Assembly (NCBI GenBank): GCA_045647885.1
Contig: JAZRMX010000026.1
Location: 54,487 to 118,486 of the forward strand
DNA length: 64,000 nucleotides
Direction: 5' to 3'
Source: Bacteroidaceae bacterium
GTDB lineage: Bacteria; Bacteroidota; Bacteroidia; Bacteroidales; Bacteroidaceae
Position numbers and translations under genes: made by a program. Under the pieces are notes generated by a model, which saw nothing but the letters and a program-made list of their open reading frames with translations, was not told the DNA's origin and ran no database searches. Below are positions 644 to 16,249 of this stretch, piece by piece; position 1 is the first letter of the stretch; each line of letters starts with the position of its first letter.

Positions 644-728
644 GGAGCGCGTATGAGAGCAACCGCAATGTGGTAGCCCACATATAAAATAGACAGAAAC
701 GGACAACCAGCGGGTTGTCCGTTTCTGT

Positions 729-1322
729 CTATAAAATCTCGGCAATGGTTATGCCATTGTTCTTTCCCACCACATAGCGCGTAACCCCGTCGTTGTTGAG
801 CGGGTTGCCGTTGCACATAATATTGTCGATATATAGCTGCTTTCCTTTTTCTATAATTGAGCACGAAAATTCATCCCCGGCTTTTATACTTGAATTAAGT
901 GCGTTTACAACCACGAAACGCCCGTTGCCTGTATGCTCAATTTCGCACAACCTGTCGGGCAACCAGCCAATTTTGACCCTTGTGCCGGGGGCAAGGTTGC
1001 TGCAAACGATGGCTTCGCTGCTCACAAAAACTTCTGATTCTCCTTTTTTCTCCTCTTTTGTTTTTGCACAAAAGTCGTTCCAATCTTTCGCACCGGTTAG
1101 CTGCGAGATAATGTTCAGAATCATTACAGAAATGCTGGCTCCTTTGCGAGTGGAGTAGCCCCACACTCTCTCGAGCGTGCTCACTGAAATGCGCTCTTTC
1201 AACCTTTCTTCTATAGTCTTCTGCAATTTGATAAAGAAGGTGTGCGATGTGCTTCCCCCAATCAGCTCCTCAATGCTTTTGCGCAAAGCCTCCATTTGTG
1301 GCGCGTCACTTTTTATATTCAT
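729..1322 (-). CDS. hypothetical protein (197 aa)
   Basis: Clean ORF divergent from the kinase gene. I cannot name any motif. The overlapping alternative-frame ORFs are shorter. Confidence 0.6.
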   Translation of the reverse strand: MNIKSDAPQMEALRKSIEELIGGSTSHTFFIKLQKTIEERLKERISVSTLERVWGYSTRKGASISVMILNIISQLTGAKDWNDFCAKTKEEKKGESEVFVSSEAIVCSNLAPGTRVKIGWLPDRLCEIEHTGNGRFVVVNALNSSIKAGDEFSCSIIEKGKQLYIDNIMCNGNPLNNDGVTRYVVGKNNGITIAEIL

Positions 1323-1409
1323 ATACTTTATGTTTTTTACAAAAATAACCCTTATATTTGAACGGCGTCAATTTTTTTTAATAAAAAGCGCAATTATAGT
1401 TTGTAAAAG

Positions 1410-2576
1410 ATGAAAGAAACAGTATCCGGTAGCGACACACTTACCCCGGTGAGTGCTCAGCTCGATTTTTCAACAACATACAACTCACCCGAAATTTATG
1501 CAGCCACATCCTCTGCAATGCTTTATCGTGTGCGCAAGGCCGGAAAATATTTCATTATAAAAACTCCAAAAAGTGGCGATGCCCGTTCTCTTTCTATGCT
1601 CAAGCGCGAGTATGAACTTTCCATAGGTAGGGCGCATCCCCATATTGTAAGTGTATTCACTTATGAACCCTCCACCATAGTGGGGTCGGGTATAGTAATG
1701 GAGTATATCGACGGGCGCAATTTAAAGGAATTTCTTGCCGAAAAGCCTTCCCTTGCAATGCGCCGCAGAGTACTGGGGCAGTTGTTGCAGGCTGTGGCAT
1801 ACATACACAGGAGTGGTCTTGTGCACAACGATATAAAGCCCGAAAATATAATGATAACCCGTGCCGATAATGATGTTAAACTCATAGACTTCGGCATAGC
1901 CGACAGCGACGCCTACTACCTTTCTCGCACGCTTGGCTGCACACCGCTTTATGCCTCGCCCGAGCTGCTTTCGCAGACAAGGGAGGTGGATGCGCGCAGC
2001 GATATATACTCGCTGGGCTTGATAATCAAAGAGCTCTTCCCCGGGCGACATTACTCGCGTGTGGTTTCGCGTTGCCTATATATAAATAAGGAGAAACGTT
2101 ACTCCAATGCCGAAGCTCTGCAACGCGCAGTGAGTCGTTATCATTATCCTTGCTATGCGTTCGCAGTTCTCCTTTTGTTATTGCTGGCCCTTTTGCCACT
2201 GTTTATGTATATGCGCGTGAGTAATGAACTTGCCGGCACGCAGCAGCACCTTCAGCAGCAACAGCGCATTATCGAAGAGAACAATGCGCGTGAGGCACAA
2301 AAGATAGCCTATGTGGACTCTGTAAAGAACATAATAAGGAGTCGTGTTGAAACAGCCTATAACCAAATACACGACTCCTTGAAAAATGAGCAGCCGCTTA
2401 CTCGAAGCAAATACCCCGACGTTTGCTCATCCTTTATGGTTAAAAGTTCTTGTATGGATATATGGAATGAGGGCAATGTGCCGTCGGAACATCTTGCCCA
2501 CCTCACTGCCTACGAAACATCTCTGAAAAACGAATATTTAGGGCGGTTCCTAAAGTCCGTAGGTTACGAAAAGTAG
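1410..2576 (+). CDS. Hanks-type serine/threonine protein kinase with one TM segment and a C-terminal domain
   Basis: Catalytic loop 'HNDIKPENIM', 'DFG' and 'SPE' motifs are present. A hydrophobic segment 'AFAVLLLLLLALLPLFMYM' is followed by a ~120-aa tail. Confidence 0.85.
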   Translation: MKETVSGSDTLTPVSAQLDFSTTYNSPEIYAATSSAMLYRVRKAGKYFIIKTPKSGDARSLSMLKREYELSIGRAHPHIVSVFTYEPSTIVGSGIVMEYIDGRNLKEFLAEKPSLAMRRRVLGQLLQAVAYIHRSGLVHNDIKPENIMITRADNDVKLIDFGIADSDAYYLSRTLGCTPLYASPELLSQTREVDARSDIYSLGLIIKELFPGRHYSRVVSRCLYINKEKRYSNAEALQRAVSRYHYPCYAFAVLLLLLLALLPLFMYMRVSNELAGTQQHLQQQQRIIEENNAREAQKIAYVDSVKNIIRSRVETAYNQIHDSLKNEQPLTRSKYPDVCSSFMVKSSCMDIWNEGNVPSEHLAHLTAYETSLKNEYLGRFLKSVGYEK

Positions 2577-3013
2577 CATATTTAATGTAAATGACAAAAA
2601 AAGACAAACTCTATTATTGTTTAATGCGTATATCTTTGCAATAGACAAAAAATGGAGGAGTAAATATATATAAAAAGCAATAGCCGATTAAAAAAACGGG
2701 GCGTTTCTTGCGTGTGTGTTTTTTTTAATATTAATTTGCTGAAAATACTGATAAACACGCGAGTGTTTGCCATTCTCGCTGATGAACCTAGGAAATTCAT
2801 TATCGATAAGAGAATCGCAAGCCCTGTCGCAATGTGTCGCGCATATATATGCGTGCGCTATTGGCGTAGGCTGTTGCTTTTTTCTTTATCACGGTTTTCC
2901 TAGGACCTATCAGCGGAAAAAAGACCAACAACCTGCGCTTTCTTTATGTCCGTACAATAAGGTCAAAGTCGCGGTTTGCTAAAGTTAAAGAGTCTATATT
3001 AAACCGTGATATT

Positions 3014-3580
3014 ATGAAAAACATTTCTTTAATTCTATTTCTTGGAGTGCTGCTCGCTGCTTGCAACCCTAAAGCCAAAATGGTGGAAGAGGCTTTTGGT
3101 AAAATGGAGGATATGTCACAGATTGGTACTGTGGAATACACCATTACAAAGCTGATTATTGCCAACGACAATTCTCTCTTCAAGTTCGGAGACAGAAAAA
3201 TTGTGTTCTCTTGCAAGGCTACAATGAAAGCCGGCATCAATTTGAAAGATTTTTCAAAGGAGGATGTTGAAATCACCAATAATGGTAAAAACGTAACTTT
3301 AAATCTCCCTTATCCCAAAGTGTTGGCATTTAATATGCCTGCCGACCAGGTGAAACTCGAATACTCAAAAGTGAGCGGTATGCGCGATGGTTATAACACC
3401 GAAGAGCGTAACGAACTTCTTAAGCAGGGCGAGGCTGCAATCCTCTCCGATGCATCAACAATTGGTATTATTGAGGACGCAAAAAAGAATGCAACCGACT
3501 TTTTTACAATGTTGCTTGCTCACTGCCAATTCGAAAATATAAATGTATGTTTCAAAGATACTACAACTGTAAAAAAATAA
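3014..3580 (+). CDS. DUF4230-like lipoprotein
   Basis: Lipobox 'LLAACN'. The core 'ATMKAGINLKDFSKEDVEITNNGKNVTLNLPYPKVL' matches my memory of the DUF4230 pattern (xGxDL ... LP xP xI). Confidence 0.7.
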   Translation: MKNISLILFLGVLLAACNPKAKMVEEAFGKMEDMSQIGTVEYTITKLIIANDNSLFKFGDRKIVFSCKATMKAGINLKDFSKEDVEITNNGKNVTLNLPYPKVLAFNMPADQVKLEYSKVSGMRDGYNTEERNELLKQGEAAILSDASTIGIIEDAKKNATDFFTMLLAHCQFENINVCFKDTTTVKK

Positions 3581-3583
3581 GTT

Positions 3584-4720
3584 ATGAGCATGTTTGATAA
3601 AATAGCCAAAAAAGTTGTTGGTGGTGCTGTGAGTAAAGTTGCAGAAAGCGCAAAAGAAAAGATTGAAAAAGCAGCAGAGACAGTTGTGGACAAAGCTGTA
3701 GATAAAGCAACAGAAGCTGTTATTGACAAAATGGGTGTTGCTTCTTCGGGCGAAGAACCCTCTACACCCAGCCCTTCACAAACAAGTGACGACAATAAAG
3801 AATGCAAAGTATCCAATGTTGTCGATGCAACTACTAAAATTGCCGATAATGTTACAAAAATTGCCGATACAGCATCAAAAGTTGCCAATGTCGTAGGTAC
3901 AGCAACGTCTGTCGGTGGTGCAGTTATGGGTGGAGTTGCAACCCCCATATTCGCACAGTTACCGGTTATTATAGGTATAATATTGCTTGTTGGTTCCTTA
4001 ACAACATTTTTGGTTGTTAACCCGTTTGGGTGGGACTACAACAATATCTTCGGTGGCGCTCCCAAGATTGAGAAGACTGCTAATGTAGTAGAAAAAGTAC
4101 GTAAAATATCGGAGTTTACAACAGCTTGTTACTATGAGGAGTATGTAATCAAAAACGAGAAATTAGGCGAGGAGAAAAGTTTCTTCTCTTCAAAAGTAGA
4201 TACCGTGAACTACGAGGTGGTGATAACCGTAAAAGGTTCCGTGCGTGCAGGCTTCGACCTCTCGGCTTTGGGAGAGCAAGATCTTATTGTAAGAGGCGAT
4301 ACCATAGATATCAAACTACCTGCTCCCCAAGTGTTCGATGTAATAAGTAACCCGTCGGACTACAAGATATTTGTAGAGACCGGCAAGTGGGAACACGACG
4401 AGATTGTAGCTATGCAGTCAAAGGGTAGAGAGCACACCCTCAACAATGCGCTCAACAGCAACCTCTTGCAGCGTGCCAACAAGGTGGGTAAAGAACGCAT
4501 CACAGCATTGTTCAACAACTTTGGATTCTCTGTAGTGAATGTAACCCTCACAGAGCCTGCTGCAGCACCCGAAGAGGTTGCCGAGGAAACAACCTCACCT
4601 GAAGAAACCATAGCTGCAGAAACCGAAGCCGTTGCCACCGACAGTATAGCAACTGCTACAGCACCCGAAGATGTTGTTGCTGCCGATAGCGCAACCGTTG
4701 AAGCTCCCACAGTTGAGTAA
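3584..4720 (+). CDS. DUF4230-domain membrane protein with Ala/Lys-rich N-terminal repeats and an acidic Ala/Thr/Glu-rich tail
   Basis: TM segment 'LPVIIGIILLVGSLTTFLVV'. The core 'VKGSVRAGFDLSALGEQDLIVRGDTIDIKLPAPQVF' is paralogous to the preceding gene. Only 3 nt separate it from that gene. Confidence 0.7.
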   Translation: MSMFDKIAKKVVGGAVSKVAESAKEKIEKAAETVVDKAVDKATEAVIDKMGVASSGEEPSTPSPSQTSDDNKECKVSNVVDATTKIADNVTKIADTASKVANVVGTATSVGGAVMGGVATPIFAQLPVIIGIILLVGSLTTFLVVNPFGWDYNNIFGGAPKIEKTANVVEKVRKISEFTTACYYEEYVIKNEKLGEEKSFFSSKVDTVNYEVVITVKGSVRAGFDLSALGEQDLIVRGDTIDIKLPAPQVFDVISNPSDYKIFVETGKWEHDEIVAMQSKGREHTLNNALNSNLLQRANKVGKERITALFNNFGFSVVNVTLTEPAAAPEEVAEETTSPEETIAAETEAVATDSIATATAPEDVVAADSATVEAPTVE

Positions 4721-4759
4721 TTGAAGCATTAATTAAAAAAACTTACAAATATTACTATT

Positions 4760-6055
4760 ATGGCAGATTTTATTTTGGATGGACGTACAAAAGTAAAGAC
4801 CATCAAAGCCGAATTTAAGGCAAATTTCGGAGCTACACTCCGCGTATATACAAATATTGCGTGCGAAGGTGAGCAGGCGAGTGACGATGCAACACTTGCT
4901 TCAATCCGTGCCGAAGGATACTCGGGTGGTGAACTTAATGTAAAGGGAAATATGAAGGTTGCGACTTTTGAGAAGAAAGTTGCCGAACTCTACGGTATTG
5001 GTGTTCAAGTTGCCAACGCCGACGATACAGAATTTGCCGACGATGCAGCAACACTTATGGGAGCAGCAACAACCTCATCGGCAACAAGCGGTCACGCCCA
5101 CGCTATTGAGACTCCTGCAACAGCCGAGGCCGGTCCCAATGTAGAGGTGAGTGCTCTTGAAAGTGCATCGGCAAAGGTTAGAGTTTATGGTAAAGCTCAA
5201 AACCGTACAGCATTGGGTATTGCTCACGCATACATGGTAATGTACCCCCACGCGACATTAGAAGACTTGCGTAAGGCATTCCCAAACTCACTAAACCCAG
5301 ATTCCGGTGTAAAAGAGAACTTCATTTATGCCGACGAGAAAGGATCGAACAATTGGAATGGTTACTTTAAGAGTGATGATGAAGTGATTACCACAGGTGA
5401 TGGTAAAAAAGTTGCAGTTGTACAGTTGTGGACAAAGCCTAGCTTTGAGCGTATTGTTGCTCACGCACGTGCTTACGATATAGTTGTTGCCAAGTTCGAG
5501 GCAGCCGACAAAGGAGGCAAAAAGGGTGGTTTCCGTCTCGAATACCTCAACGGCTATGTTCCCCCTGTACCCTCGAAGAAAAAAGGCTTCCTGTGGTTGT
5601 GGCTTCTCATTCTTCTTTTGCTTGCTCTTGGTCTCGCAATATTCTTTGCAACCCGCAAACCCGAGGTTGTAGAGGTAGAGAAGATTGTTGAGGTTGAAAA
5701 AATTGTATATGTAGAGCGCATTGAGGAGATTGAAAAAGACTTCAACGCAGCAACATTCATTGCCGGCAAAGCCGACCTTTCCGACGATGCCAAGTTTGTT
5801 CTTCACGACCTTGCCAAGGAGATGGCAAAGCACCCCGAGGTTAAGTTGCGCATCGTAGGCCACACCTCTTCAGAGGGCGACCCTGCGTTCAACCAGAAAC
5901 TTTCCGAGGAGCGCGCACTGGCTGCAGTAGACTTCCTTGTAGGTCGTGGAGTTGACCCCGCACGCCTCCAGTCCGAGGGAAAAGGTTCTTCAGAGCCCAT
6001 TGACGAGAACAACCTCGAGGCTAACCGTCGTACAGAATTCATTATTATTGAGTAA
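4760..6055 (+). CDS. Fusion protein: N-terminal double 'KVKTLK..F..FG..LRVY' module, unknown middle domain, TM segment and C-terminal OmpA-like peptidoglycan-binding domain
   Basis: The first ~100 aa are roughly 65% identical by eye to the 104-aa proteins at 7369 and 8768. TM segment 'FLWLWLLILLLLALGLAIFFA'. OmpA_C-like 'RIVGHTSSEGDPAFNQKLSEERALAAVDFLV..RRTEF'. Confidence 0.8.
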   Translation: MADFILDGRTKVKTIKAEFKANFGATLRVYTNIACEGEQASDDATLASIRAEGYSGGELNVKGNMKVATFEKKVAELYGIGVQVANADDTEFADDAATLMGAATTSSATSGHAHAIETPATAEAGPNVEVSALESASAKVRVYGKAQNRTALGIAHAYMVMYPHATLEDLRKAFPNSLNPDSGVKENFIYADEKGSNNWNGYFKSDDEVITTGDGKKVAVVQLWTKPSFERIVAHARAYDIVVAKFEAADKGGKKGGFRLEYLNGYVPPVPSKKKGFLWLWLLILLLLALGLAIFFATRKPEVVEVEKIVEVEKIVYVERIEEIEKDFNAATFIAGKADLSDDAKFVLHDLAKEMAKHPEVKLRIVGHTSSEGDPAFNQKLSEERALAAVDFLVGRGVDPARLQSEGKGSSEPIDENNLEANRRTEFIIIE

Positions 6056-6074
6056 TATTAAAAAACTTAAAGTT

Positions 6075-6209
6075 ATGGCAGTTAAAAAAACAAAAGACGG
6101 TACAGTTGACAAACGTACCAAAGAGGGAAAAGCTATTGCTGAGCGTATGGCAAAGGCACGTGCCGAAAAGAACAGCCTCAAAAACAGAATTAAAAGATGG
6201 TTTAAGTAA
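6075..6209 (+). CDS. small highly basic protein (44 aa), hypothetical
   Basis: ATG at 6075 is preceded by the same AAAACTTA A-rich leader seen before neighbouring genes. Sequence: 'MAVKKTKDGTVDKRTKEGKAIAERMAKARAEKNSLKNRIKRWFK'. Too short for strong support. Confidence 0.4.
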   Translation: MAVKKTKDGTVDKRTKEGKAIAERMAKARAEKNSLKNRIKRWFK

Positions 6210-6225
6210 CATTTTGACTACTATT

Positions 6226-6636
6226 ATGAATACAGAAATGAAACATATTGCCGCTTTGGTGGCAACATCAATATGGGCCGACGGCCAGTACGACGAAGCA
6301 GAGAAAATTGCTGTAGGCGAGATTGCCGACGCCTTTGAACTTAATGCCGACGAATTTGCAGCAGCAGTGGACAGTGAACTTGCCCTCATTGAGCCTATGA
6401 GCGAGGAAGAGGTAAACGTTTACATCCTTGAGCATTCGGCCGAAGTGGAGGAGGAAGAGGCCGAAATGTTGCTTCAGGCAGTTCTTCAGGTAGTAATTGT
6501 CAATGGCATCCTTGGCGAAGAAGAGGTAGAGAATGTACTCGCAATAGCTTCGGCACTTGGTATCAACGACTCACGCGCAGTGCTTATGCTTGCCGACCTT
6601 GTAAAAGAGGAACCCGAACTCCAGATTGAATTTTAA
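6226..6636 (+). CDS. TerB-like (tellurite-resistance TerB fold) acidic protein
   Basis: 'IAALVATSIWADGQYDEAEKIAVGEIAD' resembles the TerB 'ADG...E' helix pair. The start is set at ATG 6226 (MNTEMK), because the longer ORF from 6106 overlaps the preceding small gene. Confidence 0.5.
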   Translation: MNTEMKHIAALVATSIWADGQYDEAEKIAVGEIADAFELNADEFAAAVDSELALIEPMSEEEVNVYILEHSAEVEEEEAEMLLQAVLQVVIVNGILGEEEVENVLAIASALGINDSRAVLMLADLVKEEPELQIEF

Positions 6637-6720
6637 GAAGTTGTTTTAATCACAAATAGCCCCAGGCAAGAGTGAAACCTTACCGGGGCACACACATAAC
6701 CAAACATATATAAAATTACT

Positions 6721-6909
6721 ATGATACTTTTTGATATTGGCGCAGTATTGTTTTTGACAGGGCTCATATGGATAGTATGGTTCCTCATAAAAAGACTCTT
6801 TAGCGTAGTAATAGTTTCAATTGTTGTATCGCTTATTGGTGGCCTTCTAATGTTGATAGCCCACTATATAGTGATGGGAAACACATCTATTTTCGACAAA
6901 TACATATAA
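6721..6909 (+). CDS. small membrane protein (62 aa, two predicted TM segments)
   Basis: Two hydrophobic stretches, 'ILFDIGAVLFLTGLIWIVWFL' and 'VVIVSIVVSLIGGLLMLIAHYIV'. Same strand as the cluster. Confidence 0.5.
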   Translation: MILFDIGAVLFLTGLIWIVWFLIKRLFSVVIVSIVVSLIGGLLMLIAHYIVMGNTSIFDKYI

Positions 6910-6935
6910 TATAATTAACAAACAAGACAGACACT

Positions 6936-7298
6936 ATGGGACTTTTAAACAACATTTTGGACAGTTTCAAGAACGCAGAATTCACTGTAGCTCCTCAGAA
7001 GAAGCTCAAAACTATTTCGGCCGACTTTAAGAAGGCATTCGACCTAACCCTTGTATTCTACAAAGGTGTGCAGATAGCCGATGGTGAGCTTACCCTCGCT
7101 GCTCTCAACAAGAAGACCACAAAGGATGTGAAAAGCACAGCCGATGGCCTCAAGATTAAGGCAAGTATGAAGGTGGGTGATGCCGAGAAACTCTTCGACA
7201 CAAACTTTGGTGTAACCGTGCAGATAAAAGACAAGAGCGGTGCCAAACTCGTTCCCAATGAGATAACCATTGGCCAGGCTGCACGCGGCGAGTATTAA
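6936..7298 (+). CDS. divergent member of the double-module family (120 aa)
   Basis: Contains two module copies, 'KKLKTISADFKKAFDLTLVFY' and 'MKVGDAEKLFDTNFGVTVQIK', each followed by a 'xTL/TI' turn. Confidence 0.7.
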   Translation: MGLLNNILDSFKNAEFTVAPQKKLKTISADFKKAFDLTLVFYKGVQIADGELTLAALNKKTTKDVKSTADGLKIKASMKVGDAEKLFDTNFGVTVQIKDKSGAKLVPNEITIGQAARGEY

Positions 7299-7368
7299 AT
7301 AATGACTTTAATATTGTATAACTACAAATTTATAACTTTTTGGCTAACCATTAAAAACTTAAAACATT

Positions 7369-7683
7369 ATGGCAGAATTTAAATTGGATGGCCGTATGAA
7401 GGTCAAGACCTTGAAAGAGAATTTCAAAAAGAACTTTGGTAGCACATTGCGCGTGTACAAGAGCGTTACTTGCAAGGGTGCTATGGCTGACGATGATGCA
7501 ACATTGGCTTCACTCCGTGCCGAGGGTAAGACTGGTGGTGAGCTTACAGTAGGTGGCAACCTCCGCGTTGGTAACTTCGAGAAGAAGATTGCCGAGCTCT
7601 ACGGTATAGGTGTTCAGGTAGCTAACGCTGACGACAGCAAGCTTGCCGACAACGATATTACTCTTGTTGCTGCAGGTAAATAA
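7369..7683 (+). CDS. double-module family protein (104 aa), copy 1
   Basis: 'GRMKVKTLKENFKKNFGSTLRVY' and 'GNLRVGNFEKKIAELYGIGVQVA'. The protein is 100% identical to the product of 8768..9082. Confidence 0.8.
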   Translation: MAEFKLDGRMKVKTLKENFKKNFGSTLRVYKSVTCKGAMADDDATLASLRAEGKTGGELTVGGNLRVGNFEKKIAELYGIGVQVANADDSKLADNDITLVAAGK

Positions 7684-7705
7684 TCGTTAAAACCCGTATT
7701 AAGGT

Positions 7706-7729
7706 ATGCAGGGCTTGGTTGCCCTGCAT
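7706..7729 (+). terminator. 9-bp GC-rich hairpin downstream of the 104-aa gene (no U-tract)
   Basis: ATGCAGGGC-ttggtt-GCCCTGCAT lies 23 nt after the stop. It lacks a T-run, so its terminator role is tentative. Confidence 0.45.
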
Positions 7730-7806
7730 ATCACTAAAAAACAAATTGTTTTCATAAAAGGGTTATTCGCTTTATGCAGCTTTATTTATAACTCACAAAA
7801 TTTAGA

Positions 7807-8733
7807 ATGGTGGCAAAGTTAAAAGACATATCAGCTAAGGATGCAGCGACTCACCTCAAAGAGGTGCAAGATGTATTTAATCTCCTTGCGAAAAAGGATG
7901 TTTACAAATCTGGATTTTCAGAAGATAAAGGGGCTATATCAAAGGTCTTTAAAAGCATCAAGGAAGTGAGCAAAACAGACATCCTTGTTCGTCTTACACT
8001 CATTGATAGTATGTACTCTACTCAGATGAGTCGTCGCTACTATGCCCTCGATGAGTTGGCTACGGCTTTGTTTAAACTGTCGGGCGGGAAAGATGGTAAG
8101 TTAGAACAGATGTTCCTTGATTTTGCTGCTGCACCTGAGCAAAAAGTGCATCTTTTTGACTACGAGGAGAGAGACGATAAAGGAAATATCGTGTGTAAAA
8201 ACCTATTTTCTGAATGCTATGGAATTGGTAAAGGTGGTGCCGACAAAGGTGTTGCTATCTCCCTTATAAGCAAGTATGCATACTTTGAAACCAATTTCAA
8301 ATTCCCTATCTATGACTCTATTGCTTGCGAAATATATCCATTAGTTTGGCACTTTTGTGGTTTTGGAAAAGATAAGCCCAAACTCATACATAGTGAAAAT
8401 GGAAAAGTAGTTGGTGACAGGACAATGGTAGAGTATGTTAAAGCGATAAACCTGCTAATAGATAAGATAGATTGCAAAGAAGTTAACTACGACTTGCTCG
8501 ATCGTTTCCTGTGGTTCGTGGGCAAGATTCGTCGAGGCAATCTCTCCCTGGTTTTGTCGCGTGAGGAGTATATAGCCACTATAAACATATTCAAAGCACA
8601 AAACGTAACCGAAGAATCAAGTGAGTACTTTAATATTGAAAAGGTAGATTTGAGTAAACTTACATATTTGAAGAAAAACTCTTTGTTGTATAAGTTTTTT
8701 GAATTTGCAAGAATTTACGGACATAAGAAATAA
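7807..8733 (+). CDS. hypothetical protein (308 aa), AT-rich cargo between the direct repeats
   Basis: Clean ORF. Spot counts of 60-nt lines give about 32-45% GC, against about 50% for most neighbouring genes. Motifs 'SLISKYAYFETNFKFPIYDS' and 'LDRFLWFVGK' remind me weakly of OGG-fold/HhH-like uncharacterised families. Confidence 0.7.
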   Translation: MVAKLKDISAKDAATHLKEVQDVFNLLAKKDVYKSGFSEDKGAISKVFKSIKEVSKTDILVRLTLIDSMYSTQMSRRYYALDELATALFKLSGGKDGKLEQMFLDFAAAPEQKVHLFDYEERDDKGNIVCKNLFSECYGIGKGGADKGVAISLISKYAYFETNFKFPIYDSIACEIYPLVWHFCGFGKDKPKLIHSENGKVVGDRTMVEYVKAINLLIDKIDCKEVNYDLLDRFLWFVGKIRRGNLSLVLSREEYIATINIFKAQNVTEESSEYFNIEKVDLSKLTYLKKNSLLYKFFEFARIYGHKK

Positions 8734-8767
8734 GAGCATTTATTAACCATTAAAAACTTAAAACATT

Positions 8768-9082
8768 ATGGCAGAATTTAAATTGGATGGCCGTATGAAG
8801 GTCAAGACCTTGAAAGAGAACTTCAAAAAGAACTTTGGTAGCACATTGCGCGTGTACAAGAGCGTTACTTGCAAGGGTGCTATGGCTGACGATGATGCAA
8901 CACTTGCTTCACTCCGTGCCGAGGGTAAGACTGGTGGTGAGCTTACTGTAGGTGGCAACCTCCGCGTTGGTAACTTCGAGAAGAAGATTGCCGAGCTCTA
9001 CGGTATTGGTGTTCAGGTAGCTAACGCTGACGACAGCAAGCTTGCCGACAACGATATTACTCTTGTTGCTGCAGGTAAATAA
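8768..9082 (+). CDS. double-module family protein (104 aa), copy 2
   Basis: Identical protein to 7369..7683. The five nucleotide differences within the CDS are all synonymous. Confidence 0.8.
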   Translation: MAEFKLDGRMKVKTLKENFKKNFGSTLRVYKSVTCKGAMADDDATLASLRAEGKTGGELTVGGNLRVGNFEKKIAELYGIGVQVANADDSKLADNDITLVAAGK

Positions 9083-9104
9083 TCGTTAAAACCCGTATTA
9101 AGGT

Positions 9105-9128
9105 ATGCAGGGCTTGGCTGCCCTGCAT
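9105..9128 (+). terminator. hairpin, second copy (loop ttggct)
   Basis: Same stem as 7706..7729. The single difference is in the loop. Confidence 0.45.
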
Positions 9129-9158
9129 ATCACTATAACATTTTAAGAACTTATAACT

Positions 9159-9401
9159 ATGAGTAAAGAGTATTACAAAAAGAGAATTATTGACCTTCGT
9201 GCGTCAATTGAGAGGGAGAGAGAGGCCAAGAAACGTGATAATGATAATTATTCACGTTGGATTAAGAGTGCAACTTCGCCTTCGTCAAAGGCAAGTTACC
9301 GCAAGAGCAAAATTGATGCGGCAGCACGTCACGATAACCAGATTGAGTATCTTAAACGACAGATTGAGAGTGCCAAGGATTCACTGCGTCGCTGCAAGTA
9401 A
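9159..9401 (+). CDS. small charged coiled-coil protein (80 aa), hypothetical
   Basis: Lys/Arg/Glu-rich helical sequence 'RIIDLRASIEREREAKKRDNDN...QIEYLKRQIESAKDSLRR'. An A-rich leader containing 'GAACTTA' precedes it. Confidence 0.55.
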   Translation: MSKEYYKKRIIDLRASIEREREAKKRDNDNYSRWIKSATSPSSKASYRKSKIDAAARHDNQIEYLKRQIESAKDSLRRCK

Positions 9402-9407
9402 TGGTAT

Positions 9408-9719
9408 ATGATATTATTTTTAGCATACATAATAAACCTGTTTGCTCCTACAATAAACCTTATTGGCTTGTTGGGGCTGTGTGGGTGTGTGGTGTATGAG
9501 GATTTTTATGTTCTCGTAATTGCTGCACTGATGTTTGTTGCAGGCTTGTTCTTTGGGCGACTGGCTTATGGGCTCGATATTCCACCGCGTTGGTTTTGGG
9601 CAAAGTCGAAAAATCAACTTTTTTCTTTTACAGTAACAGCAGTGCTGGGTTATGCGTGGAGTATTGCAATGTGGCCTTGTGCCATATATCTTGTATCCAT
9701 AATAATTAAACGTATTTGA
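9408..9719 (+). CDS. small membrane protein (103 aa, 3-4 TM segments), hypothetical
   Basis: Hydrophobic segments throughout. It starts 6 nt after the previous stop. Confidence 0.55.
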   Translation: MILFLAYIINLFAPTINLIGLLGLCGCVVYEDFYVLVIAALMFVAGLFFGRLAYGLDIPPRWFWAKSKNQLFSFTVTAVLGYAWSIAMWPCAIYLVSIIIKRI

Positions 9720-9723
9720 TACT

Positions 9724-9885
9724 ATGAAATTCGGTCTTTCATTCTCGCTCAAGCGTGCCTTGGGTGTTACTGCGGTAAAGCAGAAGATTGCTAAAAAAAC
9801 GGGTATTCCTCTTACAAAGCAGGGCTTGGAACGCAAAATCGGTGGTGCAATATTGGGTGCTATTACCGGTAAAAAGAGAAAATGA
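9724..9885 (+). CDS. small basic protein (53 aa), hypothetical; not in the supplied ORF track
   Basis: Hand translation gives 'MKFGLSFSLKRALGVTAVKQKIAKKTGIPLTKQGLERKIGGAILGAITGKKRK*'. It starts 4 nt after the previous stop. Its short length limits support. Confidence 0.35.
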   Translation: MKFGLSFSLKRALGVTAVKQKIAKKTGIPLTKQGLERKIGGAILGAITGKKRK

Positions 9886-10038
9886 TGAGGTGGTTTAAGT
9901 TATTGCCTTGCTTGGTGATTGCGTCTCTTGCACTTGCTTGCGGCCCAAATGGAGAGCTTGTGGGCGATGCTATTGATGCGGGTAATCTCAAAGAGGCTGA
10001 AAGGCTTTTGAGAGAAATTTAATGAAACAATGCACTAA

Positions 10039-11355
10039 ATGAAGATGAAGTTTCTTGGAATTGTAGCTTTGGCTTGTCTGCTGGTGGTATTTTGCAGCTG
10101 CGGTGGTTCTGTGGGCAATGGTGGCTACGACGATGGCAGCGTGAAACTGTCGGAACGTGAGGCTTATCGTTATGACATGGCCTTGCGTGAGGTTGAGAGC
10201 CTCGAGAAAATGTTTGAAGAGGTTATTGCAGCTCCCACACAGGAGAATATTGCATTATTGCTTGTAAAGGCGAAGGGGGTAAAGTACAGTTATAACGACA
10301 ATGGAATGAATGCTGCAACGCTGGAGCATTGCGATTCTCTGAAGGCCCGTATGGAGGAGTATCAGCAACGCGCCCTCGGGATTGCCGAGTCTTTCCTTAT
10401 CTCTACCGGAGATATAAAGGTTGTAAATATCGAGGATAAGCTCTTTACCGAAAATGCTTATTATCCCATCTATCTAAAGAAGGGGGAGAAACTTTTCTAT
10501 AATATTGAGTCGTCGAAAGTGCTTACTGCAAAACTTTATAATTCCGACACCGAAGAGTTGCTGAAATCCTTCAAGAAGAGTGAGATTACCGACTCGTTCA
10601 CTGTGCGCAACACTGGAATATATCTTATGGAGATTGCGCCGCAGGGAAAGCAGTATGTGAGTGTGGTAATGAGCTACAGGCCTGTGAAAGCAGAGGATAT
10701 ATACAGCCGCCCTACAATATATACCGAGCAGGTGGAGTGCAAGAAGGGTGATATTGGTGCAAAGGGTGTTCCCGGTGTAATTATGCGAAAATGTTTTGAG
10801 GAGCCACGCAAGTTTACCCTCCGTGGCCAGCTTAAAGCTGCATTCTCGGGAAATGCGAAGGCTTTGGTGGCAGTGCCGCTGCCTGCCGGTACAACAGACC
10901 TCCTTTATACAATGCGTATTGCTACAAGTGAGAGCAACCGTTCCGAGGATGGACAGTTCCACGATAACCTGTCGCGTTCTTATTCGCGCGTGAAATTCTT
11001 GGGTCTCCCTCTTTATGAAAAGACATCGAGCAATGGATTGCTCAATACCTTGCTCGACGATAACCGCCCCATACGCGACGAGGATGCTTACTGCAGTATG
11101 TATGTGTTCCGCAAACAGGCTGCGGCTAAGCAGTTCCAGGATGGAACAAAGCCTGTTTCGCAGCTTGCTTATGATGTGGATTATTCAACAGTAGGCACTC
11201 AGTCGTGCAATGGCCGCATCCCTACAAATGGCGCAAAGACCATATATCTTGGTTTCGAGAATGAGCGTGTGCGTTACACCAACTATCTGTGGGTGGAGGT
11301 GGAAGCTGTTGTGCCGAATACAGTGTACTATACCACCAAATATAGCATAAACTAA
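10039..11355 (+). CDS. lipoprotein of unknown function (438 aa)
   Basis: Signal peptide plus lipobox 'LLVVFCSCGG'. A beta-rich middle part ('GEKLFYNIESSKVLTAKLYNSD...GIYLMEIAPQGKQYVSVVMSY') resembles pre-peptidase/PPC-like beta-sandwiches. This is tentative. Confidence 0.7.
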   Translation: MKMKFLGIVALACLLVVFCSCGGSVGNGGYDDGSVKLSEREAYRYDMALREVESLEKMFEEVIAAPTQENIALLLVKAKGVKYSYNDNGMNAATLEHCDSLKARMEEYQQRALGIAESFLISTGDIKVVNIEDKLFTENAYYPIYLKKGEKLFYNIESSKVLTAKLYNSDTEELLKSFKKSEITDSFTVRNTGIYLMEIAPQGKQYVSVVMSYRPVKAEDIYSRPTIYTEQVECKKGDIGAKGVPGVIMRKCFEEPRKFTLRGQLKAAFSGNAKALVAVPLPAGTTDLLYTMRIATSESNRSEDGQFHDNLSRSYSRVKFLGLPLYEKTSSNGLLNTLLDDNRPIRDEDAYCSMYVFRKQAAAKQFQDGTKPVSQLAYDVDYSTVGTQSCNGRIPTNGAKTIYLGFENERVRYTNYLWVEVEAVVPNTVYYTTKYSIN

Positions 11356-11388
11356 AACTTATAAGTATACTTATAACTATCAACTATT

Positions 11389-11901
11389 ATGGCAACTACT
11401 ACGAAGAAGACAACAGTTGCAAAACCTGCTGCCAAGAAGACAACTGCTGCAAAACCTGCTGCAAAGAAAACCACTGAAGCGAAGGCAACTGCAAAACCTG
11501 CTGTTAAAAATAATGAGATTTCCGTAACTGGTAATAAGAAGATTGAGACTCTTTGTAAGGAGTTTAATAGAAAGTTCCCTTATCTAAGATTAGGTATATA
11601 TTATAGCTATGCCCGTCAGCAGGTAGCAAAAGGAGAAACAATAACCCGAATACCTGGTGACAAGACATTGGCTTCTGTTCGCAGAGTCGATTCGGGTGGC
11701 GATATTTCTATCTCCGGCAACAAGAAAGTAAAATCTTTGGAGAAAGAGTTTGATACGGTTTTTGGTCTCTACTGCCAAATATGTTACTCAAAAGTTGAGG
11801 GTGGAAGATATTATACATCGGGCAGTTTTGACGATATGACACTTTCCGGTCTTAACTCTTATGGCGAGAAGAATGGGTTTAAAAAAGGTGAGTGGAAGTA
11901 A
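11389..11901 (+). CDS. histone-H1-like Lys/Ala/Thr-rich tail fused to two copies of the cluster module
   Basis: N-terminus 'KKTTVAKPAAKKTTAAKPAAKKTTEAKATAKPA'. It is followed by 'GNKKIETLCKEFNRKFPYLRLGIY' and 'GNKKVKSLEKEFDTVFGLYCQICY'. Confidence 0.75.
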   Translation: MATTTKKTTVAKPAAKKTTAAKPAAKKTTEAKATAKPAVKNNEISVTGNKKIETLCKEFNRKFPYLRLGIYYSYARQQVAKGETITRIPGDKTLASVRRVDSGGDISISGNKKVKSLEKEFDTVFGLYCQICYSKVEGGRYYTSGSFDDMTLSGLNSYGEKNGFKKGEWK

Positions 11902-12503
11902 TGCGAATCCTATTGACAGGCTTTGAGCCGTTTGGAAAATACAATGAGAATTCGTCGTGGGTGGTTGCCGAAAAGGTAGCTACCCAGGACTTTTTTGGGA
12001 TGGATGTGGTTCTTAAGCAGATGCCGGTGAGCTTTGCCGGCGTAGCTAAGGCGTTGCGCGATGCGGTAGATGAGTGCAACCCCGCTGCGGTTGTAATGCT
12101 TGGACAGGCTGCCAGTATAGATTATATTAAGCTGGAACGCATTGCAATAAATATGATGGATGCTGCGGCTGCCGACAATGACGGATACATTGCAGACGAG
12201 GAGCCAATCTCCATTGATGGTGCGGCGGCTCTCTTTACAAACGTGGATGTCAAGGCTCTGTGCAGGGCTGTGGAGGAACAGGGGATTCCCGCAAAGGTGT
12301 CCAACAGTGCCGGGCTCTATGTGTGCAACCGTATTTATTACGAGGCATTGCAACTTTGTGGTGAGAGACCGGGAATGAAGGTGCTGTTCGTTCACTTGCC
12401 GTTCTATACAGGACAGCTACCGGTAACAGAGGGGAAACCATCAATGCTACTCGATACAATAATAAAGGCTGTGGAATTTGTAATAAATGAAATAAGTAAA
12501 TGA
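11901..12503 (+). CDS. pcp: pyroglutamyl-peptidase I (pyrrolidone-carboxylate peptidase)
   Basis: 'MRILLTGFEPFG' N-terminus, 'SNSAGLYVCN' (catalytic Cys region) and 'FVHLP' (His region). ATG 11901 overlaps the preceding TAA (TAATG). Confidence 0.85.
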   Translation: MRILLTGFEPFGKYNENSSWVVAEKVATQDFFGMDVVLKQMPVSFAGVAKALRDAVDECNPAAVVMLGQAASIDYIKLERIAINMMDAAAADNDGYIADEEPISIDGAAALFTNVDVKALCRAVEEQGIPAKVSNSAGLYVCNRIYYEALQLCGERPGMKVLFVHLPFYTGQLPVTEGKPSMLLDTIIKAVEFVINEISK

Positions 12504-14197
12504 CACGAGTAGAAAAAATCAAGAAACAGCTTGCGCGCGTCTTTGACAACGACTTGCGTACCAAGCAATGGGAAAATATTCCCGACTATGTGATTATAGC
12601 TCTTATAGTAATAAGTACTCTTTCGGTATTCCTGGCAACGTTCAATGTGGGGCCTCTTTGTGAGAAGGTGCTCTCTGTGATAGACATTGTTACGGTAATA
12701 GCATTTACCATTGAGGTTACATTGCGTATTTGGGCTGCCGACCTGATTGACGAAAAGTACAAGGGCTTTTGGGGCAGGGTGCGTTACTGCTTCACCTTCT
12801 ATGGAATGGTCGATATTCTTTCGACATATACTTTTTATGTGGCAATGTTCTTCCCATTGCCTTATTCGGCGCTGAAGACTTTGCGTGTGTTGCGTCTTTT
12901 ACGTGTGTTCCGCTATATGCACTCGTTCCGCCTGTTGCAGACTGCCATTACTTCAAAGGCCCAGGAGATGTGGGTGTCGCTGCAGTTCCTTGTTATTGTT
13001 ACATTGATGCTCTCCTTTGTGCTGTTCTTCTATGAACACGCGGCACAGCCCGATGTGTATGACAATGGTTTCAAGTCTGTTGTGTGGGCTTTTGCCCAAT
13101 ATGTGGGAGACCCCGGCGGCTTTGCCGATACACCGCCCGTTACTTTCCCCGGTAGGCTAATTGCGTGTATTATTGGTTTGCTTGGAATTGCTCTTTTTGC
13201 CGTTCCTGCCGGTCTTATTGGTGCCGGTTTTTCCGAGGCTATGGAGGATGAGCAGAAGAGAAATACAATCTTGAAAAATACCAAAAAACTTAACCTGGCC
13301 TTTGAACGCAAACTCGACCGCCCGACCGGTTATCAGGTGGTGCCTCCTTATTTGTCAATCATAGAGATACAGGCTCGAATGGGTATGACGGTGAATGAAA
13401 TTTTGGATGCTGTTGAGGATTCCTGTAATTTCCGTTTGATAAACGTTGCTGCAACACAGACCATAGACGAGCATCCACAGGACAAGCTTGCAGTGGAACA
13501 TTTTCCAAATAACAGGCCTTATGGTTATTGCATTGACCGCGGTTCAAAGGTGACTATAATATCTCCCTCGAGTCTTGTGGATCCTTGTGTGGGCAACTTC
13601 TTCTATTATCTGGCGTTGATTGGTGGATTTAACTACATAAGCCGTGAAATTGGTGTGTTGCGTCCTTACAAATCATACTATACGTTTGCCGACCGTTATA
13701 ACCACGAGGAGAACCTGCCGTTGTATATGGAGGACTTGGAGCGTCTTACCTCGCGCGAGGGTAGCTGGACAATTACCTCACTTATTTCAAGTGGTGCCAA
13801 TGAACCTGAATATCCTACAAAATTCCACTTTGCTATTGGTGGCAAAAAGGGTGACGAGAGTTTCGAAGGTGAAAATCTTGTTGTAGAGGATATTGCTGCT
13901 TATCGTTCTTTCTACGATGATATTACTGCGGAATTGAAGGAGGAGTATGGTATGGAGTCGGACCACCAGAGGTATCACAACACAGCAGTGGAAAACCTTT
14001 ATGTCCGTAAATTTGAGGAGGGTAAGGGCTGCCGCAATAATATAATTGTGCGCTTTGCCTGGAGTGCTACTTTGTGGGATTCACGACGCATTGCCATTGC
14101 CAAGACTTTTGCCGATGTCATTAACCGCCATTTTGAGGCTGATGTCGAAAAAGAGTACGCACCCGAATTGAAGGAGAAAAAACACGGTTATCTGTAA
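12500..14197 (+). CDS. voltage-gated-type ion transport protein with a large C-terminal cytoplasmic domain
   Basis: S4-like 'TLRVLRLLRVFRYMHSFRLL'. Pore-region-like 'WAFAQYVGDPGGFAD' followed by a final TM segment. ATGA overlap with the pcp stop. Confidence 0.75.
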   Translation: MTRVEKIKKQLARVFDNDLRTKQWENIPDYVIIALIVISTLSVFLATFNVGPLCEKVLSVIDIVTVIAFTIEVTLRIWAADLIDEKYKGFWGRVRYCFTFYGMVDILSTYTFYVAMFFPLPYSALKTLRVLRLLRVFRYMHSFRLLQTAITSKAQEMWVSLQFLVIVTLMLSFVLFFYEHAAQPDVYDNGFKSVVWAFAQYVGDPGGFADTPPVTFPGRLIACIIGLLGIALFAVPAGLIGAGFSEAMEDEQKRNTILKNTKKLNLAFERKLDRPTGYQVVPPYLSIIEIQARMGMTVNEILDAVEDSCNFRLINVAATQTIDEHPQDKLAVEHFPNNRPYGYCIDRGSKVTIISPSSLVDPCVGNFFYYLALIGGFNYISREIGVLRPYKSYYTFADRYNHEENLPLYMEDLERLTSREGSWTITSLISSGANEPEYPTKFHFAIGGKKGDESFEGENLVVEDIAAYRSFYDDITAELKEEYGMESDHQRYHNTAVENLYVRKFEEGKGCRNNIIVRFAWSATLWDSRRIAIAKTFADVINRHFEADVEKEYAPELKEKKHGYL

Positions 14198-14265
14198 ATA
14201 TTTTTATTGTACGAGGGTTGATATTTTATTAGGCAAAATGTTTAGTCCTTACATTCGAAAATCTT

Positions 14266-15168
14266 ATGATATTTTTAGATAGTTTCAGTTTTCCTACTTT
14301 TGAAGAAGAAGATAATTTCTTGGCTGCCTATTATCGTGAAAATCCGTATAGTATGAAGTCTGTATATCCTTTTAAGACTCTTTCTATAAGAGGGTTGCAT
14401 TCTTTGGATTTTGACGAGATAACATTGCTTTATGGCGGAAATGGTTCTGGCAAGTCAACGGCTTTAAATGCGATTGCTAATAAGTTGGAGGTGGCCCGTA
14501 GCTCGGCATATAACAAAGGGGATTTCTATAGTGAGTATATGGATATGTGCGACTATGAGATTGGGGACTTTGATGAATATGTCTTGAATTTGAAAGATTG
14601 CGCAACGCTGATAACCAGTGACGATATTTTTAAATATATGCTTGATATTCGTCAGAGGAATGGGCGGGTGAGAGTGCATCGTGATGATACAATACAAAAC
14701 TGGATGAATGAACGCACTTCTCGCATAACCCATATAAATTTTGAGACTGGAGAAGGGGTAGATGAACTAAGGCGTTACCAGAGAGCTAAACGCCAGTCGT
14801 GTCAACAGTATGTTCGTGAGAATTTAGGAGAAGTAGTACCCTCATATTCAAATGGCGAAACTGGATTTATGAAGTTTATAGATAACATTGTACCTGATAG
14901 GTTGTATATTCTTGACGAGCCTGAAAATAGTTTGTCGTGTGAGTTGCAAATGAAACTTGCGCAGTATATTAAAGAATCGGCTCGTTTTTTTGGCTGTCAA
15001 TTTATTATTGCAACGCATTCTCCTTTTTTATTGGCAATAGAAGGTGCTAAAATATATAATTTGGATGCAGAACCTGCTACTGTTTCTAAATTTTGGGAGT
15101 TGCCTAATATGAAGCTATATTATGAACTTTTTAAAAATTATGAAAAAAGGTTTATTGGCAATAGTTGA
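14266..15168 (+). CDS. AAA/ABC-type ATPase (AAA_21-like), stand-alone
   Basis: Walker A 'GGNGSGKST', Walker B-like 'LYILDEPENSLS' and 'ATHSPFLL'. Visibly AT-rich; spot counts give about 33-38% GC. Confidence 0.8.
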   Translation: MIFLDSFSFPTFEEEDNFLAAYYRENPYSMKSVYPFKTLSIRGLHSLDFDEITLLYGGNGSGKSTALNAIANKLEVARSSAYNKGDFYSEYMDMCDYEIGDFDEYVLNLKDCATLITSDDIFKYMLDIRQRNGRVRVHRDDTIQNWMNERTSRITHINFETGEGVDELRRYQRAKRQSCQQYVRENLGEVVPSYSNGETGFMKFIDNIVPDRLYILDEPENSLSCELQMKLAQYIKESARFFGCQFIIATHSPFLLAIEGAKIYNLDAEPATVSKFWELPNMKLYYELFKNYEKRFIGNS

Positions 15169-15183
15169 TATGCTGTTATAAGT

Positions 15184-15220
15184 TAAGCGCTCACTTCTAA
15201 ATTTAGGAGTGAGCGCTTTT
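15184..15220. terminator. bidirectional hairpin terminator between convergent genes
   Basis: AAGCGCTCACT-(12 nt)-AGTGAGCGCTT followed by TTT. Confidence 0.7.
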
Positions 15221-15256
15221 TACTTTTATTGGTGATGTTGTCCAATAAATGTCTTA

Positions 15257-16006
15257 TCATTTATTCCAAATCTCCCACGAGGCAAGGGCTTGAAGGTACC
15301 ACATTTCGTAGCCGCTCTTAGTGGTGGCGCCTTGAGCCGCGCCTTTTTGCAGGAATAGGGTGTTCTCGGGGTTGTAGACAATGTCGTAGAGCAGGTGATT
15401 CTCGCTCAACTGCTCATATGGTATTTCGGGGCAGAGGTCTACTCCGTGACCGACCATTCCAAGCGGTGTGCAGTTTATTATGAGTGTGTGGCTTTGCATA
15501 ATCTCTGCGGTGAGCTGTTCGTAGGCTATGGCGTTGTCGCTCGCCTTGCGCGATACAAAAATGTACTCAATGCCAAGCTGCGTGAGCGAGTAGGCTACGG
15601 CTTTAGATACACCGCCGGTACCCAGTATAAGGGCTTTTGTGTGCTTGCCTTTAACAAGCGGTTCGAGCGAGCGTGTGAAGCCTATCACATCGCTGTTGTG
15701 CCCGTAGAGGTGCGGTGTGCCGTCGGCATCGCGCTCAATCTTTACCACGTTTACAGCCTGTATGCCCTCGGCTGCGGGGCTCAAGCCTTCGAGGTAATCC
15801 ATTACCTGTAATTTATAAGGTATGGTTACGTTAAAGCCTTGCAGAGTGGGGTGGGCTTTGAGAATTTCGGGCAGTTGCTCTATGCTTTCAATTTCAAAAG
15901 GTATATACTCGGCGTTGATGCCTTCGTTCTCGAATTTCTTATTGAAAAACGCCGGCGAAGCCGATTGTCCCAAGGGGAAACCTATTATTCCGTACTCTTT
16001 TTTCAT
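15257..16006 (-). CDS. aroE: shikimate 5-dehydrogenase
   Basis: 'GIIGFPLGQSASPAFFN' substrate-binding N-terminus and 'LILGTGGVSKAV' Rossmann motif; 249 aa. Confidence 0.85.
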   Translation of the reverse strand: MKKEYGIIGFPLGQSASPAFFNKKFENEGINAEYIPFEIESIEQLPEILKAHPTLQGFNVTIPYKLQVMDYLEGLSPAAEGIQAVNVVKIERDADGTPHLYGHNSDVIGFTRSLEPLVKGKHTKALILGTGGVSKAVAYSLTQLGIEYIFVSRKASDNAIAYEQLTAEIMQSHTLIINCTPLGMVGHGVDLCPEIPYEQLSENHLLYDIVYNPENTLFLQKGAAQGATTKSGYEMWYLQALASWEIWNK

Positions 16007-16065
16007 TTTGGGTAGTAAATTTTAAAGTAACAATATAGCAGTTGCCTCAGGATTTCTTTGTTAAT

Positions 16066-16139: not shown

Positions 16140-16180
16140 ACAAACACCGGGTTATCGCAATTTGGGTCAATATCTATATT

Positions 16181-16234: not shown

Positions 16235-16249
16235 TAACAGTGTTGCTTT

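Follow-up and report, generated by a model that had tools for sequence, protein, structure and literature searches.

The duplicated tufA and tufB genes of Salmonella and Escherichia coli undergo concerted evolution by RecA-dependent gene conversion. Here we compare with them, and with other described systems, a gene pair from a Bacteroidaceae bacterium (assembly GCA_045647885.1, contig JAZRMX010000026.1, positions 54,487 to 118,486 of the forward strand); this whole stretch of 64,000 nucleotides, as analysed, is called the window. Within it, the gene for a 104-amino-acid (104-aa) protein, p104, occurs twice in direct orientation, on either side of a gene for a 308-aa protein, and an initial annotation made from the sequence had seen in this a recombination-ready cassette whose repeats bracket an AT-rich cargo gene. 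In the reading that we consider probable, the repeat is a duplicated, self-contained core gene module, its near-identity stems from purifying selection together with conversion between the copies, and the 308-aa gene is an old member of the surrounding gene cluster; we infer further that the modules act as RecA substrates and that both copies are retained for dosage or as separate transcription units. A mobile cargo cassette, which the pattern suggests at first sight, explains it less well than concerted evolution does; population data reveal the pair in three allelic states, besides an allele with one copy only. Duplicated core genes that evolve in concert at rearrangement-prone loci are already known as a kind of phenomenon; the protein family in which this occurs here is undescribed.

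Like tufA and tufB, p104 is highly conserved, probably highly expressed and present twice in one chromosome. Its paralogues are closer within a genome (synonymous divergence, dS, 0.06 between the window copies and 0.014 between those of contig L013, from a second species) than are orthologues between species (~0.5; 0.52 for the window and L013), and a conversion tract is confined to the coding region, with unchanged flanks. Unlike tufA and tufB, the p104 copies are direct repeats 1 kb apart, between which a crossover would delete or duplicate the spacer gene and not invert a segment; heterotypic (A/B) and homotypic states of two p104 alleles, A and B, segregate in one species, and the family is uncharacterised.

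For the core defence hotspots (cDHS) of Pseudomonas aeruginosa, Johnson et al. (2023, PMC10250203) suggest that genes are exchanged by recombination between homologous, conserved flanking regions. The p104 locus resembles these hotspots in that variable genes lie between fixed core genes, carry no mobile-element hallmarks and include known or candidate defence genes (PD-T4-3, PDC-S26-like, PDC-S57-like and KAP NTPases). It differs in that its slots are small (0–4 kb), lie inside a conserved gene cluster and have one core gene recurring between them, instead of being simply bounded by two different core genes, and in that most of its variable genes are without a defence annotation. Integron cassette arrays and the recombinase-associated acquired interbacterial defence 1 (AID-1) arrays of Bacteroidales (Ross et al., bioRxiv 10.1101/471110) share with it packed, co-oriented genes, a recurring hairpin-containing element and strain-variable content. 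Unlike such arrays, the p104 locus has yielded no integrase or tyrosine recombinase, its recurring element is a whole, selected protein-coding gene and not an attC-like site, the hairpin lies 3′ of p104 only and not of every cassette, and the breakpoints fit homologous recombination. No IntI integrase was found among the window proteins scanned within ~7 kb upstream or 10 kb downstream of the array.

The duplicated p104 module

The direct repeat is 392 nt long, on the forward strand at 7345–7736 and 8744–9135; copy 2 aligns collinearly with copy 1, 1399 nt further on, and the two differ by six mismatches (98.5% identity), and identity drops off sharply just beyond either end. Copy 1 holds a full p104 module, made up of a 24-nt leader beginning TAACCATTAAAAAC, the 104-aa open reading frame (ORF; coding sequence, CDS, 7369–7683), a 3′ untranslated region (UTR) and a stem-loop. 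Copy 2 is a second full module (CDS 8768–9082), which retains the upstream TTATTAACC motif present in all relatives. It occupies the ancestral position next to cc80 (9159–9401, forward strand), which encodes an 80-aa predicted coiled-coil protein and is the conserved right-hand neighbour of this p104 copy.

Five of the mismatches fall in the CDS. Three are single synonymous changes, 7422 T/C (AAT/AAC, Asn18), 7548 A/T (Thr60) and 7608 A/T (Ile80), and the other two, 7504 T/C and 7506 G/T, share the Leu46 codon (TTG/CTT), for which the path via CTG is synonymous throughout; the two 104-aa proteins are identical. In a simulation, the chance of five random substitutions leaving the p104 protein unaltered was ~5e-4. 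The sixth mismatch, 7719 T/C, lies outside the CDS in the 6-nt loop (7715–7720) of the copy 1 hairpin (7703–7732), of which the 12-bp stem (7703–7714/7721–7732) is perfect, with a predicted folding energy (dG) of −23.2 kcal/mol and a z score of −5.0. The copy 2 hairpin (9102–9131, loop 9114–9119, with the variant C at 9118) has the same dG of −23.2 and a z score of −4.5. Apart from these two hairpins, a search for inverted repeats returned none. The antisense ORFs at 7359–7559 and 8758–8958 differ by a single residue (N/S). Re-alignment thus agrees with the initial annotation on the coordinates and offset of the repeat, the mismatch count, the silence of all five coding changes, the loop position of the sixth with its stem intact, the difference between the antisense ORFs and the AT-richness of the 308-aa gene (GC content 0.380; repeat, 0.452; whole window, 0.458).

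When 19 p104 copies from many genomes were aligned, conservation was seen to start at TAAC[C/A]ATT[T/A]AAAA, ~24 nt before the ATG, and to end at ...CATATCAC, just past the hairpin; outside these limits the sequence varies with the neighbouring gene. The 392-bp repeat therefore corresponds to exactly one leader–ORF–hairpin module.

Genes for exactly this 104-aa protein occur on 23 contigs, a set chosen by protein identity. These include another species in which the identical protein is encoded with 24–28 differences from the window gene, all of them synonymous, and in which the neighbouring proteins are only 61–93% identical to those of the window. Between the window gene and that of contig L013 or L014, dS is 0.52 and non-synonymous divergence (dN) is 0 to 0.004; dN/dS among unselected p104 orthologues is 0.04–0.12. 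Judged by these substitution patterns, p104 is under extreme purifying selection, and synonymous-only differences are the general pattern for this gene. The purifying selection that had been proposed from the window copies is thus upheld by an identical protein in another species, at dS ~0.5 and dN ~0.

Allelic states and exchange between the copies

The loci given L numbers are metagenome contigs, and the conspecific set comprises those that are ~97–98% identical to the window in the flanking genes (samples ERZ28633635 for L090, ERZ27297670 for L102, ERZ27299068 for L011 and ERZ28633746 for L012). Within the species, a frame of p120, p104 and cc80 is constant, p120 (6936–7298, forward strand) encoding a distant p104 paralogue (~34% aa identity), and at least five architectures occur. 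In the window, p120 is followed by p104 copy 1 (allele lineage A1), the 308-aa gene, copy 2 (lineage A2) and cc80. In L011 (=L093, L097) and L094 (=L100), the order is p120, genes for a 63-aa and a 216-aa protein, LRR205, GIY-YIG246, A1, the 308-aa gene, B and cc80, and L090 (=L098) has the same order with B on both sides of the 308-aa gene. L012 and L015 have p120, the 63-aa gene, B, LRR767, PDDEXK_4, A2 and cc80. The fifth architecture, in L102, is the 63-aa gene, B and cc80, with a single p104 copy and without the 308-aa gene.

These loci bear on whether the window arrangement is an assembly artefact, the outcome that the initial annotation had named as fatal to its reading: a repeat collapsed or expanded by the assembler, or two strains joined into a chimera. 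The source of the window is probably a metagenome-assembled genome, only one NCBI contig is known to encode the exact 308-aa protein, and contigs of the window species often break inside p104 (several end there, as expected for a repeat). An artefact is nevertheless extremely improbable. The two copies have six fixed differences, with a longest identical stretch of ~110 nt, and their junctions are unique in all cases (4/4). The junction from the 308-aa gene to copy 2 (GAGCATTTAT) is absent from all other strains, so the window was not spliced together from an L011-like and an L012-like sequence. The p104–308-aa–p104 layout also recurs in three further contigs, L011, L090 and L094, independently assembled from other samples, and the artefact is therefore not borne out.

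Allele B differs from A at 13 residues and ~47 of 312 nt, and the p104–308-aa–p104 pairs of the species are A/A (window), A/B or B/B. Between the two copies in one contig, the CDS differs at 5 nt in the window, at 49 nt in L011/L093 and in L094, and at 1 nt in L090. Comparing L090 with L093, we found 0 mismatches over 270 nt of upstream flank and leader, then 47 mismatches, all within the CDS at 4571–4868 (a ~300-nt tract), and 0 mismatches again in the 3′UTR and hairpin, followed by ~3% divergence in the 308-aa gene; the replaced tract matches the downstream copy of L090 itself to 1 nt. A tract with this mismatch pattern is the mark that intrachromosomal gene conversion, acting over the 1-kb spacer, leaves behind. 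Allelic exchange is also visible at the cc80-adjacent position, where L012 carries A2 and L011 carries B with the same flanks on both sides and ~12% difference within the module. In a second species, L013 and L018 have two p104 copies that differ by one synonymous change and bracket PDDEXK_4, 45-aa and 216-aa genes. The suggestion that the copies are being homogenised gains support from the A/A, A/B and B/B pairs of conspecific strains and from the restriction of the L090 tract to the CDS.

A fresh duplication, in contrast, does not account for the window pair. Copy 1 has T, G, A and A at 7504, 7506, 7548 and 7608 in common with the A copy of L011, which is likewise upstream of the 308-aa gene, and copy 2 has C, T, T and T at the same four sites in common with the A copies of L012 and L015, which are likewise next to cc80. 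Since positional orthologues in other strains carry the same bases at four of the six sites that distinguish the window copies, these copies represent older allelic lineages.

If the duplication is old, the copies might have been kept alike by purifying selection alone, with no conversion and no role for the repeats in rearrangement. The near-invariance of the protein leaves only ~70 synonymous sites free to change, and the window copies diverge more from each other (1.5%) than from their positional orthologues (0.5–1.0%), as expected without conversion. We nonetheless judge selection alone to be an unlikely explanation, as it is at odds with the sharply bounded 47-mismatch tract that separates the B/B contig L090 from L093, with A2 and B alleles in identical flanks at the same position, with L013 copies that are 1 nt apart against a dS of 0.5 between species, and with five architectures whose breakpoints lie at module edges.

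In our reading, the two-copy layout in this species predates strain divergence, and non-reciprocal homologous recombination between the direct repeats, across the 1-kb spacer, has given rise to the A/A, A/B and B/B pairs. The p104 repeats would also act as RecA substrates, at which crossovers delete or swap the genes between the copies; such crossovers would explain both the single-copy allele and the strain-specific cassettes. Both copies may be retained since two expressed copies would benefit the cell, through dosage or as separate transcription units.

The single p104 of L102 matches the upstream copy of L012 in its left flank and the cc80-adjacent copy in its right flank. It could be the product expected from a crossover between direct repeats or, equivalently, the empty site where the arrays were built. 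As in known cases of direct-repeat deletion and amplification, the repeat (392 bp, 98.5% identity) suffices as a substrate for RecA and the single copy has the outer flanks of a two-copy array; unlike a simple deletion, the L102 product does not come from the array of the window itself, and either direction of the event, deletion or insertion, would account for it. The recombination-prone nature ascribed to the repeats is supported by this allele, which is without the 308-aa gene, and by the other strains in which different genes lie between p104 copies. A further breakpoint, where L011 and L012 cease to be homologous, falls within the leader motif: the leader of the L011 216-aa gene (TTCTAACAATTAAAAC) is near-identical to the start of the p104 leader, and the L011/L012 homology ends there (2820–2850 versus 725–755), which suggests, on alignment grounds, recombination at this short motif. 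The locus could serve as a natural system in which to measure conversion versus crossover between short direct repeats.

Several points weigh against this account. An exact deletion derivative of the window array (p120–p104–cc80, with no 63-aa gene) was not found among the loci, and L099, a candidate for a second single-copy locus, is ambiguous and was not counted, having a gap of N inside the hairpin. The module limits could reflect constraint on the 5′UTR and terminator and not recombination end-points, and the A/A pair of the window could result from old duplication and constraint alone, with no recent conversion needed there. The comparators are all short-read metagenome contigs, in which repeats can be mis-threaded, so that the B/B (L090) and single-copy (L102) states are provisional. 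In L099 (~5020–5120), a second p104 3′ end comes after the run of N in the hairpin; the assembler failed to resolve a repeat there, and the strain may carry an unresolved cassette.

The 308-aa gene between the copies

The 308-aa gene (7807–8733, forward strand), the cargo of the initial annotation, encodes a protein with 445 homologues. A metagenome scan with this protein identified 52 loci, 36 of them at an identity of at least 41%; in most of these 36, the homologue adjoins p120, p104, cc80, OmpA-like or TerB genes. Over all related loci, more than 30 have it next to p120, p104 or cc80, at 41–70% aa identity. In most relatives, p120 lies directly upstream of it. The relatives L001 and L005–L010 (65–70% aa identity to the 308-aa protein) have the order p120, 308-aa gene, p104, cc80, which is uninterrupted in L005–L007 and interrupted by extra genes in L001, L008 and L010. 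Relative to the 308-aa homologue, p104 lies on the downstream side alone in ~14 loci and on the upstream side alone in L055, L064, L065 and L068; in L046 it is found on both sides, as copies that are 70% identical in DNA. Among the GTDB representative genomes, a single related locus was found.

When 11 loci were compared, the window included, the 308-aa gene was AT-richer than the surrounding locus in 10 of them; low GC is common to the family and so is not a sign of recent import. Between the window and conspecific L011, the gene is 97.8% identical, against 96.7–98% for the flanking core genes, and since this divergence equals that of the flanks, the gene has been inherited with the backbone. 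Synteny in many relatives, family-wide low GC and background-rate divergence thus overturn its description as cargo: the 308-aa gene is an old cluster member and not an insert.

The same evidence makes a recent insertion of foreign DNA very unlikely. In such a scenario, a mobile cassette or circle with an AT-rich 308-aa gene and one p104 would have integrated into the resident p104, duplicating it. One crossover between circle and resident gene would indeed yield a repeat–gene–repeat arrangement, a single-copy allele exists, and 38% GC stands out against 45.8% for the window; yet the low GC recurs in homologues, the family sits beside p120, p104 or cc80 in many species and its divergence from L011 is at background, and both window copies fall in lineages shared with other strains. 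Nor were an integrase, a transposase or inverted terminal repeats found. Integrase and transposase domains were absent from the 19 predicted window proteins scanned (86–19896, with the small ORFs at 6721–6909 and 9724–9885 unscanned), and the related loci gave no recombinase match in Pfam. The duplication lacks the signature of a transposon target site, for which 2–15 bp would be typical, being 392 bp long, including a whole gene and having no terminal inverted repeats, and the orthologous site in relatives does not lack the 308-aa gene, as homologues occur in the same cluster across many species.

An AlphaFold 2 (AF2) model of the 308-aa protein is of high confidence (predicted local distance difference test, pLDDT, 90; predicted template modelling score, pTM, 0.90) and has no fold match in PDB or BFVD. 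Pfam-A gave no match for the window protein or for 36 homologues. A precomputed table assigns PF27257 (HI_0787_N) to some 308-aa homologues, the sole locus gene seen with this match being marked ‘faint’, and a 226-aa protein with a precomputed PF27257 match shares with the 308-aa protein only a 52-residue motif (E = 0.001, weak). A literature search for HI0787 found no paper.

The p104 domain, variable slots and the gene cluster

p104 is an uncharacterised, very strongly conserved small cytoplasmic protein with more than 1000 homologues (the best 120 at 83–93% identity) and a core, extremely conserved component of a gene cluster of Prevotella-like Bacteroidales. Although the most conserved part of this cluster, it is without a Pfam family or a significant match to a solved structure: scans of Pfam, NCBIfam, PADLOC and PHROGs gave nothing above threshold for p104, the 308-aa protein, p120 or cc80, and neither single-sequence nor profile searches of PDB sequences gave a match. 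The AF2 model of p104 (pLDDT 90) consists of two strand–helix–strand units. A di-ubiquitin-like fold was considered and rejected, the best PDB fold matches (template modelling score, TM, ~0.33; E at least 0.009) being too weak for homology, and BLASTP between the halves of p104 detected no internal repeat, though the predicted secondary structure repeats.

Among representatives at 50% identity, the p104 domain forms 621 clusters and is mostly N-terminal in proteins of 200–650 aa, with C-terminal partners that include BspA-type LRR_5, LRR_8, DUF4116, the L7/L12 C-terminal domain and OmpA. Three further p104-like domains lie in the same 8 kb of the window. One is p120; another forms the first 103 residues (4760–5068; 66% aa and ~70% nt identity) of an OmpA/MotB-like protein of 431 aa (4760–6055, forward strand; OmpA match 6e-17). 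The third belongs to h170 (11389–11901, forward strand), in which a Lys/Ala-rich, histone-H1-like N-terminus (weak HC2 match) precedes a p104/p120-like domain with 33% identity to p120. Imperfect 30-nt tandem repeats at 11396–11510 encode the Lys/Ala/Thr-rich N-terminus of h170.

This fusion pattern raises the possibility of a functional pairing, in which p104 is a partner (adaptor or regulator) of the product of the next gene, each copy heads a two-gene unit (p104 with the 308-aa gene; p104 with cc80) and the duplication was selected for that. Besides the N-terminal position of the domain in front of varied C-termini, it would fit with LRR_5 genes that also follow standalone p104 copies, with the position of the 308-aa gene after the paralogue p120 in relatives and with the intactness of both copies in several lineages. 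However, a strong hairpin stands between p104 and whatever gene comes next, the genes downstream encode products as unlike one another as nucleases, LRR proteins and a coiled-coil protein, and the 308-aa gene is upstream, not downstream, of p104 in most species. We regard the pairing as doubtful but worth keeping in mind, and as compatible with duplication, selection and conversion.

The GC-rich hairpin 3′ of p104 is present in nearly all species; its stems differ, with compensatory changes in 7 of 10 consensus pairs. In 20 aligned loci, the loop keeps a YTGRYY-like sequence (TTGGTT, TTGACC, CTGACC) despite fully changed stems, a conservation that hints, from the alignment, at a sequence-specific ligand rather than a plain terminator. 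Of the features of an intrinsic terminator, the GC-rich stem-loop directly 3′ of p104 is present and a U-tract 3′ of the stem is not, the sequence that follows being ACTAAAAAAC or ACTATAACAT; a terminator consensus scan does not call this hairpin. Rfam gave no match across 6600–9600, and a sigma-70 promoter scan, with a tool that does not cover Bacteroidales promoters, was uninformative. The leader motif TAACCATTAAAA was considered as an att-like site of all cassettes and discarded, since it is found only before p104, with one near-match at the 216-aa gene of L011. An origin of the module as a retro-copy of a processed transcript, which its limits resemble, was also set aside: neither a reverse transcriptase nor promoter evidence was found. 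The leader of a small gene starting at ~6079 (TATTAAAAAACTTAAAGTTATGGCA, 6045–6090) resembles that of p104 (ATTAAAAACTTAAAACATTATGGCA, 7337–7368), a likeness that may reflect a shared translation-initiation context of highly expressed cluster genes.

The slots around p104 gather strain-specific genes. In other species with a single p104, the flanking genes vary as well and include KAP NTPases, LRR_5 proteins, PDDEXK_4, a 759-aa protein with an L12 C-terminal domain and others. When the variable-slot proteins were compared with PADLOC, one match was solid (the GIY-YIG protein of L011 to PD-T4-3, 7e-41), three were to candidate families (a PDDEXK_4 protein to PDC-S26, 1e-15, and two LRR proteins to PDC-S57, 6e-12) and several proteins were without a match. 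The PD-T4-3-like gene, for a 246-aa GIY-YIG protein, is at 4186–4926 of L011 (also in L090 and L093), directly upstream of the A1 (or B) copy of p104, and does not occur in the window. With a bona fide anti-phage nuclease among their contents, such slots could help in the search for defence genes in Prevotella-like gut bacteria. It is conceivable, if rather unlikely, that the p104 module is the recombination joint of an integrase-free cassette system: a frozen protein would keep the DNA recombinable within and between species, extra copies would open slots for defence-type genes, and the 308-aa protein, with its orphan fold, would act together with p104-domain proteins as a defence or stress effector of a kind not yet described.

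The locus also draws attention to a conserved, uncharacterised Bacteroidales cluster that comprises a kinase, DUF4230, OmpA/MotB-like and TerB proteins, several p104-domain proteins and an ion channel. Its co-oriented genes (3014–14197) are conserved across Prevotella-like Bacteroidales, with gene order shuffled between species; in the window, they run DUF4230 (twice), OmpA/MotB-like, a 44–49-aa gene, TerB, p120, p104, cc80, small membrane proteins, a 438-aa lipoprotein-like gene, h170, pyroglutamyl peptidase and ion channel. A Ser/Thr kinase gene (1410–2576) lies just upstream of the cluster. At 10018/10019 in the window, between a 53-aa gene and the 438-aa gene, L011, L012 and L015 have an extra gene for a 205-aa protein (~460–690 nt) that the window is without, so that the cluster has a further presence/absence polymorphism here. 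At 14266–15168, just past the ion-channel gene, the window encodes a 300-aa AAA_21/AAA_15 (AbiEii-like) ATPase, also present in L097 and L100, which could be a further defence-type gene at the cluster edge.

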